A DNA stretch of 64,000 nucleotides from Eledone cirrhosa. Taxonomy: Eukaryota. The stretch lies in assembly GCA_964016885.1 (NCBI GenBank), contig OZ024740.1, positions 149,978,001 through 150,042,000 on the forward strand. The letters are read 5' to 3'. The notes beneath the pieces are model-generated. The model was not told where the DNA came from. It did not search any database and saw nothing but the letters and a program-made list of their open reading frames with translations. The position numbers and the translations under genes are program-made. Position 1 is the stretch's first letter. Each line of letters opens with the position of its first letter. Shown in pieces: positions 51,840 through 60,811 of this stretch.

Positions 51840-53757
51840 CTAACAGCGCTGCGATCGAATGTGGCTTTTTAGCCCAGCCAATGATCTAAAATGTCTTGCA
51901 CAGAGTCGGCAACCAAAACATTTACTGGGAATAGTCGGCTGTGGTTGGAGTTCGTGTACTTTTGCATGTCGCTTGAGCCCTCCTGCTGATTTACATTCTC
52001 TACCACATGTTTGGCAAGCATGATGAGTAGCATCTCCAACAGCAGCCTGGTAGTCAACCACTGGTCTTACTTTATGACTGCGAAGATGACTTTCGAGTCC
52101 AGCTTTGCTTAGGCAGAGTCTCGCACATACGCTGCATGTCAGCACCATAGGAGGACCCTCGCCGTCTGGAAGTGCAACAGCAATGCCCTTCCTCACATCC
52201 CGCTTTACTTTCTCGTATGCGATTCGAGATGCCTCAAAGGCAACTTTTCCCTCATATACAGTCTTTCTCCATTTATTACGATCAGCAGCAATATTCTCCC
52301 ATGTATCAGCAGAGATGTTAGCGTCTTTCAGAGAGGCTTTCAAGGAATCCTTATACCTCTTTTTTGGTTTATGTGGCGGTCGTTTTCCTTTAACCAACTC
52401 TCCATAAAAGGGTTGTTTTGGTATTCTAGAATCCTTCATCCTGGCAAGGTGACCACTCCAACGGAGTCGTTGCTTAAGCACAAGAGCTTCTATACTGTCA
52501 CACATAGAGCTTTCCAAAATCTCGACATCACTGATGTGGTCCCTCCAGTGAACGCCATGGATCCGTCTGAGACACATCTGATGGAAACGCTCCAATTGCT
52601 TAAGGTGGTGTCGATATGTGACCCAGGTCTCACAGGCATAAAGAAGACAAGAGAGCACACATGCCCTGTAAACCTTTACCTTTGTCCTCCTGCATATGTC
52701 TCGCCGACCCCAGAGTCGCCTTTCTAGCTTTCCGAAAGCATCACTTGCTTTCCTAATCCTAAGTGAGATTTCACAGTCAAGGTTGCTGTATCGATTGACA
52801 GTGCTTCCCAGGTAGACAAACTGATCAACCACTCCAAGTCGCTTGCCATACACATAGATGTTTGGTTCAGTGTACTGCTTACCAGGGGAAGGTTGGTACA
52901 TGACGACGGTTTTCTTGAGACTGACAGTCAGACCTAGGGCAGTGCAAGCGTCAGAAAATGCATTCAAAATGTGCTGCATATCACTCTCTGTGTGCGCTAC
53001 AAGATCGCAATCATCTGCATACAAGAGGTCTCTTATGATTGATGTAAATACTTTTGTCTTCGCAGCAAAGCGTCTGATGTTAAATATGCTGCCTGAGGTT
53101 CGATATCGGATGTAAACACCATGCTCGCAATTCCTGAATGCAATACAGAAAACCATTGCAAAGTATATGGCAAACAGGGTCGGTGCTGGAATATCCCCCT
53201 ATTTCACTCCATTTTTTACTGAGATAGGCTCCGACATGTTACCCCCGACATTAACCCAAGCCTTCATGTCGTCATGGAAAGACCTAACTAAAGCAAGGAA
53301 CTTATCAGTGCAACCAAGTTTCTGGAGAACCTTCCATAATGCATCTCTGTTAACAGTATCGAAAGCTTTTGTCAGATCGACAAAAAGCTGATACAGATCC
53401 AAGCCTTGTTCCATGCACTTCTCCTGGAGCTGTCTAGCTGAGAAGATCATATCAGTAGTGCCGCGTCCAGCACGAAAACCAGATTGACTTTCAGGAAGAA
53501 CACAATCTGCAATGTGTGTCAGCAGACGGTCCAGAAGCACCCTACATAAAACTTTCCCTACGGCAGAAAGCAATGATATACCTCTGTAGTTCCCACAATC
53601 GTTCCTGTTACCCTTTCCCTTGTACAAGACCACCATTACTGCATCTCTCCAGTCCTCAGGTACGGATTCATTAGCCCATATCCTGCCAAACAAAGAGTGA
53701 AGATGTTGCAGGAGTCTCTCACCACCATATTGTAGGAGCTCAGCATGTATGCCATCC
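51840..53757 (-). mobile_element. RTE-BovB-like LINE, 5'-truncated, RT plus three C-terminal C2H2 fingers
   Basis: DGIHAELL, NYRGISLL, QSGFRAGRGTTDMIF, FVDLTKAFDTV, LLYADDC, RLRWSGH, YGEL; CxxC...SH..H repeated three times. Confidence 0.95.
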
Positions 53758-54199
53758 ATACATACATACACACATACATATTTACATACATACATACAAA
53801 CAAACAAAAATATATGATGACTGCATCTTGATTTCAAGAATTTCCATTACTTTATCCTTTTCTCATACATAGGTGGCCCGAACATGACTCTTTAGCCCCG
53901 CCAAGGACTTACATTCCTTTCTGCATATACTGCAGTGATTAACGTTACTGCCACTTTAGTTCCCTGTTTTCTTTTTAGTGAGCTTTCAAATGACGTTGGG
54001 GTCCACCGGCCGAGGCACAGTGTTTTCCACACTTCCGACAGAAAAAATGCCGAAGAGAACATAATTGACAACCTTTTGTACGTGGGTTCTCTGGTAACTT
54101 CTAAGACTAGCTTTAACGAGGCAAATCCGACTACACTCATTGCTATAAAATTATTTTGAGCCCCTGAAAATCCATGCAAAGCAATATCGTGCATATCTT

Positions 54200-54755
54200 T
54201 ACACAGAACCCTCTTTAATTCTTCAGATTCTTCACGAGAAATTTAAATTCCTGTTTTCCATTATACAGATTTCCCCCAAGATCATCGATGTAAGGCACTG
54301 TCTTCTCGGCTATCTTCTCTGTTTTCTTTACTGATAAAATCTATTTTCTTGAAGTCTTTATAACTGAATGTTGGTTTGTACCTTGGCTGTGTGCCTTTGA
54401 CCAACTCCCCATATAGAAAACTGCTTAGGAATACGATGATTTGACATTCTTACAACATTTATTGAATCATAAGAGATTCAACACTTGATTGCCAATATAT
54501 ACCGAGTATTCGGTGAAGACACTGTTGATGAAAATGTTCGAGCACTTTTATATTTCGGGGGTATATGACCCAAGTTAAACATGTATAAAATAATGGAGAT
54601 AATACACATGTTCTGTAACTTTATATAAATGGAAATCTTACGTCGACACCAGAGATGTATGTTGCAGGAAAATTCGATTTCCAATATGCTGCATCAATAG
54701 TTTTACATATCAACTTGTCAAAGACGAACAATGTTTTTATTCATACAGGGAAATG
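54200..54755 (-). mobile_element. Older, heavily decayed RTE fragment
   Basis: Manual translation gives YRTCVLSPLFYTCLTWVIYPRNIKVLEHFHQQCLHRILGIYW and RMSNHRIPKQF..YGELVKG. Confidence 0.8.
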
Positions 54756-55000
54756 TTTATATATATATCTGTGGGGACAACTGGAAAGCTTCCATTACTC
54801 ATACTTCTCGCCTTCTTCACTACCTCTTCTACGGCCTCGATATGAATACCCCCTCCGCCTCCGTGGTATTTTCTTCGTGGTTATAAGAGGCTTAGCTCTG
54901 TTTCTCGACCGTTATATCGCGTGACTGTCTCCCCCCTCCGCCTTTTGGGATTCTTTCTCACGTCGTGTAGACGCGTTCTTGAGACTAGTAAAATGAGGTA

Positions 55001-55088
55001 TCCTCTTGATAAGTCGGCAGACCTCGCAAGGACTCTATATCTTTGATATATTGTTTTTGTTTATGCCACGAAACTACGTAGTCGAGGA
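55001..55088 (+). ncRNA. Type I hammerhead ribozyme, U3-A8 variant, GUC site (cleavage after 55083)
   Basis: UCCUC-UUGAUAA-GU(C)GGCA...UGCCAC-GAAA-CUACGUAG-UC-GAGGA. Confidence 0.85.
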
Positions 55089-55591
55089 ATTTAGGAACAG
55101 TTTAGGTATGATACATTTTATTACTAATTATATCTAAATGTTTCTTCTCTCTTCATAATGTATTTTTAACTCTGATACTGGTTCAGTCTGGTTCAAACTG
55201 AATTGGTCTGTCCCAGTCATTCATTGAGCAACATCGGTGAAGTTGGCACCCTTAACTCACAGTTGGGTGCGGATGCATTCATGTATATATGTGTGTGTCC
55301 GCATGTATCTGTGTGTTTCTAAATATATTAATAACTCCCTCTGGTCGAGCAATCTTTGAAGTGTGGGGACAACTGGAAAGCTTCCATTACTCATACTTCT
55401 CGCCTTCTTCACTACCTCTTCTACGGCCTCGATATGAATACCCCCTCCGCCTCCGTGGTATTTTCTTCGTGGTTATAAGAGGCTTAGCTCTGTTTCTCGA
55501 CCGTTATATCGCGTGACTGTCTCCCCCTCCACCTTTTGGGATTCTTTCTCACGTCGTGTAGACGCGTTCTTGAGACTAGTAAAATGAGGTA

Positions 55592-55679
55592 TCCTCTTGA
55601 TAAGTCGGCAGACCTCGCAAGGACTCTATATCTTTGATATATTGTTTTTGTTTATGCCACGAAACTACGTAGTCGAGGA
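55592..55679 (+). ncRNA. Identical second hammerhead (cleavage after 55674)
   Basis: Same sequence 591 nt downstream. Confidence 0.85.
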
Positions 55680-55824
55680 ATTTAGGAACAGTTTAGGTAT
55701 GATACATTTTATTACTAATTATATCTAAATGTTTCTTCTCTCTTCATAATATATATAGATATATATATATAGTGAAAGATTGAAGAATAACATGATCGGC
55801 TGTACAACAAGGAGTTTTATTTCA

Positions 55825-55937
55825 AGTATTAACAATTGTTTCATTGATCAGGTGAGTCTAAAGGCCGCTAATCACTCGAAATTGCGTCACTCGACCTTAA
55901 ATACAGTGTTTACCTCTGATCAGATCATCAGAATACT
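55825..55937 (-). ncRNA. Hammerhead motif with a long helix II insertion, in a solo ~240-bp insert (55771-56007) between (TA)n runs
   Basis: Minus strand reads AGUAUU-CUGAUGA-UC UGAUCAG...CUGAUCA AU-GAAA-CAAUUG-UU-AAUACU. Confidence 0.65.
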
Positions 55938-56004
55938 AGAGATTTCACATATGGCAATTGTATATATAGAGACAACGTAGAATCAAGACAATAACATCAA
56001 TAAT

Positions 56005-56095
<91 letters not shown>

Positions 56096-56189: not shown

Positions 56190-56761
56190 TATATGGTGGC
56201 TGCCAACTCGTTTTCGAGTACGGCCACTACTTTATATCCATGTAGGAGAACCCCTACCGATGCGCTGAATGAGTGTGACTTTTTAGTCCAGTCAGCGACT
56301 TGAAAACTCTGGTACAAACACTACACCTGTGACAAGTATTGACACATAGTGCTGGGCCCATGGTACGATGTGACGAGAAGTGCAGAGAGATCTCCAGACA
56401 TAAAGCAATGCCTGTGCCGTGAAGCTTTTATAGTGAGCAAAGGCATTGCACAAAGCCAGTCCCACTCTCTTAACCAAGATGATATTTACCAAAAAGAAGA
56501 ACAAGTCAACATCATTGGACATCATCAGGGTTGCAGGTGTTATATCAGAGTTTTCCTTCTAGAATTCTGCCTTGACAAAGGCTAAGGGGGTCATCTCTCC
56601 CGGTGATTTTGGATGGCCATTGACTCTTAAGAACTCCTTTGCTCTTTGACAGGTTTTGTTTTTAGTCCTGTAGGATGTCCAAAGTCACCCTCCTTACCAA
56701 GAAAACTTGGTGGGGTTGCCAGTTTAGTCGCCAACGACCCGACCATAGGTCGTACATGGGA
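56190..56761 (-). mobile_element. Non-autonomous RTE-derived element (5'UTR-like head + RTE-like 3' end), copy 1
   Basis: High similarity to 61640-62192; GAAGGAAAACTCTGA motif reminiscent of RTE 5' UTRs; 3' end GGCCGTACTCGAAAACGAGTTGGCAGCC resembles the RTE 3' fragment at 51.5 kb. Confidence 0.6.
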
Positions 56762-56880
56762 CATACATACATACATACATACATACATACATACATACAT
56801 ACATACAAACATACATACATACATACATACATACATACATACATACATACATACATACATACATACATACATACATACAT

Positions 56881-59800
56881 AAAGTTGAGCTACATTACGC
56901 GGTAAGATTACATACAATAATTCTACATAAGTGTTTGAACTGTAAGTGTGTTGTAAAATACCTATTTATATGAACGATACATACACTTATGATATATGAA
57001 CGATATATACACTTTAACATATAAATACAACGTTAAAGAAATATACTAAGTAACGGTTCTTTTTGTTCTCGATTCAAGAACAACGTTTAAAACACAGTTG
57101 TAGAATTAAAAACTAACTGAAAAGAAATATTACCCAAGCTGTGAATAACTTTAAATTTGATTCTGAGAGAACTTTGTCGAAACTTTTAAAGAAGATCATC
57201 GACTATTTTGAAAAATAAATACGAAATATTAGTGAATAGACGAACTCATCATGGCAAAAAGTACAAGTCTCCTTCGACCAAATCGCAACTACAACCGTTG
57301 TATACAGTGGAGCTACGAGCTTAACAAAGAATTATATGAAGCATACAAACAATCTGAACCCCAAAAGTTCGGTTTTATGCAAAGGCTAAAAACTTTATGG
57401 AACTCCAAACACCCAGAATTAGACTTTTCTCCAAAGCATTTAAATGAACAGGCAAAACGTATCATTAGATGTAAATTGATACATCTAACGGAATTGAGTG
57501 ATACTACAAATATAGCCCTTGTAGACAACCACCTCACCTCCACTGACAGATAAAGAGAATGGCCAGCTAAATCTAACAGTGAACAGCTCACCAACAATTT
57601 TGCTGAAATCCATCCCACTTCCACTGAAGAACAGCGAGAATGGGCAGCTAACTCTAGTAGTAATTGTCACCACATCAACAACGAGGCTGAAATTCATGAC
57701 TCTACTGTACAAACAGAACGCCAAAAACATGTGGACACCTTACACGTGATATGGGACGATATGTTTCAAGAGATACACAGCCTTAATGTGAATGACAGAC
57801 CATACAACACCAGAATCAGTAAAGAACCCACTAAATTTGAATTGGAAGCGGTGAACGAAATAGCTGGCAATTATCTAATCTAAAGGTGTAGAAACGACAT
57901 TTGAAACGCTTAATATTTTGTTATACGTTTCAACTGTCACATTGCTATCATATAACACACATCTAAAACCACGCAATCAAGATACAAACAAAAAGCCTGA
58001 ACCAGCGTGGATGCGAAATTTAAAAAGCAAAATTTTGTCCCTGAGACGAAGTATCTCACACATCGCAGTCGTTATGAAATGCAACATAGAGAGCAACTTC
58101 ACATGACACCAGGGAGACCTAAAAAAAAAGTTAGAGAGACGATTTGGAGATACAAAATTTAAAACTTTGAACTCCAAATTACACCAGTTGAAACAACAAC
58201 TCACAGCTACAATAGAAAGACTAAAATATAAGTCAACAGCACATAAACGACAAGTGCTAAATAGATTGTTTGCCAGAGATCCTAAATCAGTTTATCGCAG
58301 CTCCAGTGGCAAAAGCTCAATCCCTGTAAATGACACCCCTTCAAAAGAACAGGTTGAGAGCTACTGGAGATCTGTATGGAAAACGGATGACGGATTCAAC
58401 AGACAAACTAATTGGCTAAAAAAACTGGAACAGGACTACTGCCAACATGTCCAGACAAAACAATATGGCATAGATGGGTCAATACTGGAAACAACTCTAC
58501 AGAAAATGTCTAATAGGAAATCACCAGGCCCAGACCTCATTACAGGATACTGGTTGAAGAATTTCACTTTCTATCGGCAAGATCTCATACGGCTGTTTAC
58601 AGAAACCATTAAAGGCACACAAGAACTGCCCAGATGGTTAACAACTGCCACTACTCTCCTCATTCCCCAAAATAGCCAAACCACCCTTGCTAAAAATTAC
58701 CGCCCAATAGCCTGCCAAAACACCATGTATAAATTATATACTGGGTGCCTTAACCTGTTCTTACAGGATCACTGTGCTACCAACAACATCATAACACCTG
58801 AGCAAGATGGTTGAAAGAGGGAGGTGTGGGGTTGCATAGATCACCTACTAACTAATAAAATGATTCAGGAAAAAACAACAAGAATCGCAGAAACATGACT
58901 GTGGTGTGGTTGGACTATCAAAAAGCATTTGATAGTGTACCTCATGGGTGGATTATTAAGGCTTTACAGTTAGCCAAAGTCCCACAAACATTGGTAGCTG
59001 CTGTTGAGCGCCTGACCAAGAACTGGTACACCAATTTGATCCTTAGAGGTGAGAATGAGCAAATTAAGACAGATAAGATATATTACCAGAAGGGCATCTT
59101 TCAGGGTGATAGCTTGTCAGTGCTACTCTTCGTTCTCTCACTAAATCCACTATCTTACCTACTCAGGAAACAAGGTGGACAAAGAAGTGGGTCCAGAAGT
59201 ATCGCCCATCTTTTCTTTGTTGATGACCTGAAGTTGTATGGGTCAAATATCAATGACATCAAGAAACAATTGGACCTCATTACACAATTTTCAACAGACA
59301 TCAAAATGAAATTTGGTGAGTCCAAGTGTGCATATTTGGCAGTAAAACGTAAAAGAGCTGTGCCCTCCTCTAGAAATCTAGAGATGACAATACAACCTCT
59401 GCAGTCAGGTGACAACTACAGATATCTTGGACAGGATGAGAATGTCAGATATGATGGACCCATAAATAAGGAGAGAACCAGAACTGAATACCTCAGAAGA
59501 GTAAAGAAAATATGGTCATCAGAACTGTCAGCGTACAACAAATACATCGCCCACAATACTTATGCTGTGCCAATTCTAACGCCAACATTTGGCCTGCTGA
59601 ACTGGTCATTGCAAGAACTAAGTGAGATGGATGTTAGAACTCACAAACTTCTCAGTGTTACTGGGAACTTTAACATCAATGGTGATGTGGATAGGCTATA
59701 CTTCTCACGCAAGGAAGGTGGCTGGGGTCTAAAATCCATATTAACAACATATGAGACCCGAATAGTAACACTGAAGCAATACCTTCAACAGAGGAAAAAG

Positions 59801-60811
59801 GTTGGCAACCATCTTGCCCAGGTTTATGAGCATGAAAAGAAAAATATCATTAGAATAGCGACTGATCTGGAGGAGAGATATGGAATAAAGCCTGATATAA
59901 ATCTCTCACCCAGGGAAATCGGAAGATCCTATTCAATGTTCAAACAAGATGAAAAAAATTGACCAATTTACAGAAAAAGTTGTGCATGGATACTTGAGAC
60001 GTAAAAAGCAGACCATAGAGGGGATAAATCACTCAAAAAGCCTGGCATGGAGGTCCGACAAGTTTATGACATCACACCTTGAGGGATATCTCTATGCAAT
60101 ACAGGAACAAGAACTCCCAACGAAATATCTGCTGCACAAAAGGGGAGGGCCAGCAGCTGACAATAAATGTAAGCTATGTAAAACAAAGATCGAGGATGTA
60201 AGCCACATTGTTGCCAGCTGCGAAAGAATGTCATCTCGCTACTACCTCCCCATGAGACACGATGAGATAGCTAGAACCATCTGGAACGCACTTCGGAAAA
60301 CAAAATTAACAACAAACGAGGAAGAATATATTGAGACAGATGGCACTAAGGAATACTGGTGGAACCTGAAAATAAAAACTGCCACCAAATTAAAGCACAA
60401 CCGGCCTGATATTGTTGTTTGGGACCACACATTGAAAACGTGTTCTGTTGTGGAGATCAGCTGCCCACTTGATGTAAACGTTGTCAGAAAAATACAGGAG
60501 AAGGAGGACATCTACGGACCATTGATGAGGAGTTTACAAATCCAGTATCCAAGATACACCTTTAGCTTCATACCCATCATTATTGGAGCTACGGGTTATA
60601 TACCAACCCGCTTGGACCAAAGTATGACTGAACTTGGATTTGCGGACAAAAAGCGCAGCTCCCTAATTCATAGTCTACAAATGGCTGCGATACCTTCAAA
60701 ATTTGCAAAACATTCTTGCGGTTCAAGAGATGACAATTTCTATTTTTTACAACCTTGCTACCAGGAAGGTGGCCGGTAAAAAATATATACTCGAAATTAA
60801 GAGAAAGAGAT

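Follow-up and report, generated by a model that had tools for sequence, protein, structure and literature searches.

How is a repeat copied that encodes no protein and carries, in each of its units, the motif of a self-cleaving hammerhead ribozyme? This question is raised by an insertion in 64,000 nucleotides (nt) of Eledone cirrhosa DNA (contig OZ024740.1 of assembly GCA_964016885.1, forward-strand positions 149,978,001 to 150,042,000; this whole stretch is called the window below), which consists of 591-nt units in head-to-tail order and lies within a (TA)n tract (Table 1). An earlier description of the window, here called the original prediction, had read the insertion as a young, non-autonomous, retrozyme-like element giving rise to a circular RNA and mobilised by a Penelope-like element (PLE). 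We searched the 3.0-Gb assembly containing the window and compared the copies found there. Their structure suggests that a PLE reverse transcriptase (RT) makes the copies, with nicked (TA)n DNA as primer, and that its template is an RNA of unit length, probably circular, whose excision by the hammerhead is predicted; we give this reading a probability of about 0.75. Taken alone, PLE-type target-primed retrotransposition of a non-autonomous hammerhead element appears highly probable, and a circular template is somewhat favoured over a concatemeric one.

For metazoan retrozymes without long terminal repeats (LTRs), the proposed cycle comprises self-cutting, ligation to a circle and synthesis of tandem complementary DNA (cDNA) by the enzyme of a PLE or of a long interspersed nuclear element (LINE); the circular RNA template is put forward there as a hypothesis, and in its Discussion the same paper admits circle sizes from 150 nt to more than 1000 nt (Cervera and de la Pena 2020, PMC7229834). 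Minimal hammerheads have been described in the pseudo-LTRs (pLTRs) of PLEs, in which helix I is short, helix II is long and has an unpaired base close to its 5' side, helix III is palindromic and the mode of action is dimeric, and a U3-A8 covariation of the core has been reported in the schistosome Cercyon elements (Cervera and de la Pena 2014, PMC4209133). The hallmarks of PLE insertions listed by Craig et al. (2021, PMC8557442) are heavily truncated 5' ends, partial tandem copies, an inverted copy that is itself 5'-truncated, a tail confined to one end and a preference for (TA)n; the same article regards the tandem and inverted structures, the one-sided tail and the bias towards microsatellites as still in need of a mechanism, and it mentions MRC1 of Chlamydomonas, a non-autonomous PLE derivative. 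Vertebrate retrozymes have likewise been argued to be non-autonomous PLE derivatives related to pLTRs, in a preprint that leaves the mechanism open, discusses unequal crossing-over and calls the empirical evidence on the life cycle limited (bioRxiv 10.64898/2026.07.22.740005). Among the matches listed for retrozymes or hammerhead ribozymes in cephalopods, only PMC8557442 was relevant.

The element class is thus known already, and the 591-nt family is a very young, abundant and unusually informative member of the hammerhead retrozymes that depend on PLEs. On the question of how animal retrozymes and PLEs are copied, its youth and abundance are an advantage, as they have preserved the starts, the junctions and the template variants of thousands of events. 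It offers two defined start sites, a one-of-each rule in their use, seamless copying over many rounds and a candidate autonomous partner that follows the same rule.

A young and abundant family

A 28-mer of the unit has 2,125 exact matches in the genome, against none for the reversed control, and the whole unit gave 191 matches at 98-100% identity in the 40 candidates that were scored out of 403. Genome-wide, 3,549 element ends adjoin (TA)n, 2,530 at the start site called A below and 1,019 at the start site called B. The units are 99-100% identical to each other and have a GC content of 0.36-0.46. Single-occurrence variants amount to 64 in 69,861 aligned nt, or 9.2e-4 per nt; among these 64 there is no excess of A>G that could be taken as a scar of RNA editing (4 A>G, 12 T>C, 12 G>A and 7 C>T). 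The youth of the element, as originally proposed, is borne out by this divergence of about 0.09%, and the genome-wide count of copies that had been suggested as a check shows that independent copies exist.

A sister lineage is marked by 132G, and many of its matches follow each other at 595-nt spacing. One locus of this lineage, G000 C1:338974647-338982277, is a higher-order array, in which four units at 595-nt spacing are followed by a step of 1,123 nt, the block being present three times with a period of 2,908 nt.

The non-coding and non-autonomous character of the insertion was also upheld. Pfam gave no match for its longest ORFs (open reading frames) starting with ATG, of 75-89 amino acids (aa), and in the window no ORF of a GIY-YIG protein or PLE was found next to the insertion. 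The possibility that the repeat is merely the pLTR of one truncated coding PLE is ruled out by the lack of a family-matching ORF and of an adjoining GIY-YIG domain and by the thousands of independent copies and (TA)n-joined ends.

Contigs from four sequencing runs, whose kind is unspecified and which cannot show ends, strand or circles, also contain the unit. Contigs of 621 nt and 620 nt, in runs X1 and X4, bridge the unit junction, and loose contig ends in (AT)n were seen in run X2 at window positions 55163 and 55328.

Two start sites, one of each per insertion

Positions in the unit (q) are numbered from the predicted hammerhead cut. The anatomy of the insertions was determined at 39 loci comprising 60 arms, and all listed ends in the first 105.7 Mb of contig C1 (142 ends, 100 at A and 42 at B) served as an unselected check. 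All 60 arms have (TA)n at their 3' end, and it is also present at the 5' flank in 12 of 17 single-armed insertions. The 3' ends fall on two fixed sites, A at q80 and B at q245-250, with a rare site C at q502 seen in one case; the 5' ends of the 60 arms are scattered. More than one unit is present in 44 of the 60 arms, and at least two units in 19 of them; the median arm has 1.6 units and the longest one, of 6,553 bp, about 11.

At 21 of the 39 loci a second, inverted arm is present, joined 5' to 5' to the first one by an overlap of 0-9 nt or a filler of 2-18 nt. Twenty of these two-armed loci combine A with B and one combines B with C; A+A and B+B were not observed. The single-armed loci end at A (13) or B (5). 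In the unselected stretch of C1 all of the 25 head-to-head pairs were A+B, and since one of these pairs overlaps the 39-locus sample, the same site was used twice in none of 45 distinct two-armed insertions. Arms picking their sites independently would be expected to give A+B in only about 40% of cases. Two-armed insertions therefore use one of each start site, as a strict rule.

The tail extension of two-armed copies is accordingly found at one end only, the B end reaching 165 nt beyond the A end. None of the 60 arms starts at q207-213, the longest uninterrupted TA run of the unit, so that microhomology alone does not determine the choice of start sites. Two simpler origins of the inverted arm were considered and rejected. 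Foldback of a single cDNA is ruled out because the arms differ in both their outer and their inner ends, and two independent insertions lying side by side are ruled out because the arms adjoin with an overlap of 0-9 nt and have private variants in common.

The copied template

Of 131 unit junctions, 128 were intact and three had a single substitution; insertions, deletions or filler were found in none. Together with the absence of a pile-up of 5' ends at the cut site, this indicates that the template was continuous across it. Two apparent 5' ends at q1 proved to be artefacts of BLAST breaks.

Several variants occur array-wide and in both arms of an insertion, namely 444T, 351G, 220G, 132G and 83C. 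Of these, 444T is present in 13 of the 13 units of one insertion, two in one arm and 11 in the other, and its 28-mer has exactly 13 matches in the 3.0 Gb, all within that insertion. Likewise, 429A is found in four of four units of one array and has one match elsewhere. At least for 444T, a single unit was therefore copied many times. The two-site rule, the private 444T and the seamless junctions together point to the copying of one unit-length, endless and probably circular RNA.

Arrays in which neighbouring units have different marker combinations (192A/550C; 285C/436A/448A) were observed at G000 C4:232213157-232215132 (L075) and C1:426281886-426283710 (L018).

Hammerhead motif and predicted folds

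The hammerhead motif is identical in both of its copies in the window. In the first copy, helix I (5 bp) is formed by UCCUC at 55001-05 and GAGGA at 55084-88; between them lie the core UUGAUAA (55006-12), the 57-nt arm of helix II (55013-69), GAAA (55070-73), the palindrome of helix III, CUACGUAG (55074-81), and UC (55082-83), the cut being predicted between this UC and GAGGA. Helix II is GU(C)GGCA...UGCCAC, that is 6 bp plus one bulged C. With the cut site GUC and three helices placed round the core, of which helix I is the open one, the motif is of type I. The conserved core was defined as C3/U3-U4-G5-A6-N7-G8/A8-A9 ... G12-A13-A14 with position 3 paired with position 8 and a cut site N-U-H; UUGAUAA ... 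GAAA conforms to this definition, with U3-A8 covarying. Each component that the original prediction had named (type I layout, U3-A8 core, large helix II arm, palindromic helix III, GUC) was thus found again in each unit, and the 591-nt piece expected from its two cuts agrees with the arithmetic of the cut sites. The window element is confirmed as a non-coding insertion of a 591-nt repeat with one hammerhead motif per unit.

The chance occurrence of such a motif was estimated with a descriptor combining the core with a helix I of 5 bp, paired throughout, and a helix II of 5 bp, in 300 simulations of the 64-kb window. It gave 0.027 matches per simulated window, none of them with a palindromic helix III. 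A third match in the window itself, at 59191-59299 on the minus strand (GUCUG-UUGAAAA ... GAAA ... UC-UGGAC), has a helix II of 72 nt and a helix III of 14 nt that is not palindromic; it is located opposite the ORF of a LINE-like RT and is probably due to chance.

The linear 591-nt unit has a predicted folding energy of -177.4 kcal/mol (z = -5.83, from 100 shuffled sequences), and this unconstrained fold includes helix II with its bulge. For two 100-nt hammerhead segments, the classical double hammerhead is predicted at -58.9 kcal/mol, against -45.2 kcal/mol for two monomers, with a 10-bp helix III (ACUACGUAGU) and helices I formed in trans. Self-cleavage, dimeric action and a circular RNA are predictions. 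The circular fold of the unit is predicted at -173.0 kcal/mol, and in it the strand of the cut site, 55661-55679 (q578-q5), pairs over 16 bp with 55150-55167 (q67-84), the region of start site A. Such a pairing may keep the ribozyme inactive in the circle, or may couple the ribozyme to priming.

Proposed mechanism and its alternatives

In the cycle that we propose, tandem copies would be transcribed, and two hammerheads would pair via the 10-nt palindrome ACUACGUAGU and cut after GUC. A host ligase would close the 591-nt unit, and the GIY-YIG nuclease of a PLE would nick (TA)n. One DNA 3' end would then prime at site A or B, and the polymerase would run round the RNA; the second DNA end would, in roughly half of the events, prime at the remaining site of the same RNA, giving the inverted arm, and the two cDNAs would be joined by 0-9 nt of microhomology. 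The self-cleavage, the ligation to a circle and the identity of the PLE supplying the enzyme are the steps that we infer. In its strongest form, the proposal is that for each insertion a PLE RT repeatedly traversed one circular RNA of unit length, which the insertion would thus preserve as DNA, and that synthesis was primed from the two sides of a (TA)n break at two dedicated start sites, 80 and 245 nt beyond the cut; we see the chances of this as evenly balanced. If true, it would be the first genomic proof of the circular RNA-templated, rolling-circle retrotransposition proposed for retrozymes and would provide its cis-acting sites, and the one-sided tail and the inverted arms of PLEs would be explained as twin priming on a single RNA.

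Several findings weigh against this interpretation. The element is known here from its DNA copies alone, and these bear no footprint of cleavage: five 5' ends fall on q1, the predicted cut site, whereas the control position q15 has 18. Rfam reports no hammerhead, neither in the whole window at the gathering score nor in 54700-55800 at E<=10, where its only matches are weak, miRNA-like (microRNA-like) and due to chance; the 57-nt helix II arm and the U3-A8 core probably lie outside its models. The family is also too young to reveal selection on the motif, single-occurrence variants being found at 7.0e-4 per nt in the hammerhead and at 9.6e-4 elsewhere. Most array-wide variants are inherited, since 351G (10 loci) and 132G (360 matches) are lineage markers. 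Two of the 39 arrays are mosaics of such markers, and in the array with 444T (C4:169491752-169498305, L077) the change 209T>C recurs in three of 11 units that are not adjacent, which could reflect a copying hot spot or unequal exchange after insertion. Neither the mosaics nor this recurrence would be expected from one faithfully copied circle, and they suggest template switching or later unequal exchange; the higher-order array at C1:338.97 Mb similarly suggests growth after insertion, beyond a simple picture of a single circle. The two-site rule holds also in an autonomous PLE of about 5 kb (see below), so that it shows one RNA unit per event and not by itself a small circle. Finally, BLAST gave only low-complexity matches, and no homology, between the 591-nt unit and 42 (30 + 12) GIY-YIG loci, a part of about 10,595 candidates, and pairwise alignment of the unit with the tail of this autonomous PLE showed no homology either.

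The alternative that survives best, which we nevertheless consider unlikely, is that a PLE enzyme copies a long, uncleaved, concatemeric transcript of a parent array, no circle being formed and the hammerhead being mainly a recognition or structural element for that enzyme, or a passenger, instead of a processing ribozyme. It predicts seamless junctions and an absence of 5' ends from the cut site equally well, lineage markers inherited array-wide and mosaic arrays fit it, minimal PLE hammerheads cut poorly in vitro according to PMC4209133, and hammerheads may simply parasitise PLEs, as considered in PMC8557442. Three observations speak against it. With a median arm of 1.6 units, universal 5' truncation would shrink the arrays in each generation, yet arms of 11 units exist; 444T fills the 13 units of both arms of one insertion and is found nowhere else; and a concatemer would have many A and B sites on offer, yet none of the 45 distinct two-armed insertions uses the same site twice.

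More improbable is a linear, hammerhead-cut unit RNA on which the polymerase would jump from the 5' end to the 3' end of the next molecule and so build the arrays. Other target-primed reverse transcriptases are known to jump end to end from one template to the next, and molecules with one A and one B site each would also yield the two-site rule. Against this, none of the 131 junctions has extra or missing bases, 5' ends do not pile up at q1, and the 3' ends are internal (+80 and +245) and not at the cut site.

That the arrays are satellites, grown by unequal crossing-over from a PLE terminal fragment that landed once per locus, has a precedent in the local amplification proposed in 10.64898/2026.07.22.740005, and the repeating T/C at q209 in the 11-unit array and the higher-order array of C1 suggest some growth after insertion, yet this origin is hardly credible as most arms already exceed one unit at a divergence of about 0.09%, arrays with identical fixed ends stand at thousands of distinct (TA)n sites, and inverted arms have private variants in common.

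Resident Penelope-like elements

The genome contains 10,595 GIY-YIG candidates, and all of the 150 that were scored passed the Pfam cut-off. A candidate autonomous PLE family (L062) has a 938-aa ORF with matches to RVT_1 (28.0 bits, just below the cut-off) and GIY-YIG (28.3 bits, above it). It is flanked by minimal hammerheads with a U3-A8 core, CCUU-UUGAAAA-GCAGAAGAACUGC-GAAA-CCGG-UA/AAGG, in which CCGG is the palindrome and the stroke marks the cut; among the GIY-YIG loci sampled, only this family has a hammerhead with a palindromic helix III. Its copies end in (TA)n at one of two distances past the cut, about 80-82 nt (...UUUUUCUUUAU) or about 145 nt (...CACUUUCUAAU), and all 10 of the two-armed ones seen combine a short with a long end. 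The family has 846 candidate loci; identity to the query is 95-100% for the 41 matches scored and, over a 238-nt query comprising hammerhead and tail, 94-100% for the copies at 34 loci. These copies are older than those of the retrozyme.

The retrozyme thus mirrors the integration behaviour of this resident PLE, including the position of its short start site. The two also resemble each other in the U3-A8 minimal hammerhead, the palindromic helix III and the (TA)n ends. Unlike the PLE, the 591-nt unit has the cut triplet GUC instead of GUA and other helices, and outside the core the two have no alignable homology. In sequence, the unit has in common with this PLE and the 42 GIY-YIG loci only the hammerhead core and short pyrimidine-rich/UAAU end motifs. 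Mobilisation by a PLE, as originally proposed, is therefore supported by the insertion marks listed in PMC8557442, all of which are present, and by a resident PLE with similar (TA)n ends, a U3-A8 hammerhead and a two-end rule. A PLE sharing the repeat, for which the original prediction had proposed a search, was found neither among the 42 GIY-YIG loci nor in the L062 family. One retrozyme copy lies near a PLE fragment, in L056, by chance.

Three hammerhead types of the genome have a common core, helices that differ in sequence and are nevertheless paired, and a palindromic helix III, the pairing of helices I and II having been demanded by the descriptor itself. A small hammerhead element in (TA)n was seen at L062:300-705 on the plus strand, with a unit of about 316 nt, the core UUGAUAA, a GUC site and the 10-nt palindrome CAGAGCUCUG; it ends in ...CCAAUUCUAAU followed by (AU)n, like site B and the long end of the autonomous PLE. 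Another PLE family, distinct from the candidate partner, is represented by L061:1775-5062 (plus strand), an open frame of 1,096 aa with an RVT_1 match and a GIY-YIG match near its C-terminal end; its tail, which enters (TG)n/(TA)n about 70 nt past the stop codon, shows no hammerhead.

Relation to known elements

The 591-nt family resembles the metazoan non-LTR retrozymes of PMC7229834 in its non-coding tandem units with a type I hammerhead in each, its many dispersed copies, the absence of an LTR and a GC content below 50%, and its DNA record fits the life cycle proposed there. The monomer is fairly long, as had been noted, with 591 nt (595-nt spacing in the sister lineage) against about 170-400 nt in those retrozymes, and lies above the range of about 150-450 nt applied here to such retrozymes. 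The ribozyme is of the minimal PLE type, with U3-A8 and a 57-nt helix II arm, whereas most invertebrate retrozymes are described in PMC7229834 as having canonical hammerheads with loop-loop contacts. Unlike the retrozymes as presented there, the family inserts strictly into (TA)n, and what is known of it here comes from genomic copies.

With the minimal PLE hammerheads described in PMC4209133 the motif has in common the 5-bp helix I, the bulged helix II, the palindromic helix III and the U3-A8 core. Those hammerheads adjoin an RT/endonuclease ORF, whereas here the 591-nt unit is without protein and helix II is extended to 57 nt. Every hallmark of PLE insertions listed in PMC8557442 is seen in the family; differences are the tail of 165 nt (from A to B) against 30-40 bp in the PLEs of that article, the lack of an ORF and the arrays of up to 11 units.

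MRC1 and the vertebrate retrozymes are, like the present family, multicopy, head-to-tail, protein-less insertions that depend on a PLE (PMC8557442; 10.64898/2026.07.22.740005). In these sources they resemble an autonomous family at the 3' end or in the pLTR, whereas no such resemblance was found for the 591-nt unit. For this family, the data speak against local amplification by unequal crossing-over.

The insertion in the window and its surroundings

The two nearly identical direct repeats of about 390 bp that had drawn attention to the insertion are confirmed at 54770-55163 and 55362-55754; with the 198 nt between them (55164-55361) they make up 1.67 units in head-to-tail order. They differ by one 1-nt insertion or deletion in a C run and one G/A substitution, plus a G/A at the 3' boundary. 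TA repeats are present on both flanks, as originally described, and the positions of all features are given in Table 1.

Table 1. Positions in the window of the 591-nt repeat insertion and its features
Feature	Position	Strand	Remarks
Insertion	54770..55754	+	985 bp, 1.67 units; 5' end truncated at q279, 3' end at start site A (q80)
Left (TA)n target remnant	54758..54768		Read from the sequence
Right (TA)n target remnant	55751..55771 (start approximate)		Border with site A ambiguous by ~4 nt
Hammerhead motif 1	55001..55088	+	Predicted cut after 55083
Hammerhead motif 2	55592..55679	+	Identical to motif 1; predicted cut after 55674
Predicted excised unit (q1-q591)	55084..55674	+	Linear or circular RNA of 591 nt (putative); ends calculated from both cuts
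Internal copy of start site A (q76-80)	55159..55163	+	...CUUCAUAAU, then GUAU; site where most DNA copies end
Start site B (q245-250)	55328..55333	+	...UUUCUAAAU, then AUAU; alternative 3' end of the family, unused by the window copy

The neighbours of the insertion are decayed, LINE-like RT fragments at 51840-53846 (minus strand) and 58859-60779 (plus strand). Because they are LINE-like and have no GIY-YIG domain, the repeat is not the terminal repeat of an adjacent coding PLE. Directly to the right of the insertion, 55788-55900 is a high-copy repeat, on which contigs of runs X2 and X6 pile up with many variants. Long (TA)n and (ACAT)n microsatellites lie near the insertion at 56004-56095 and 56761-56884, and the (TA)n tract among them offers the 591-nt family an unoccupied target of its usual kind.

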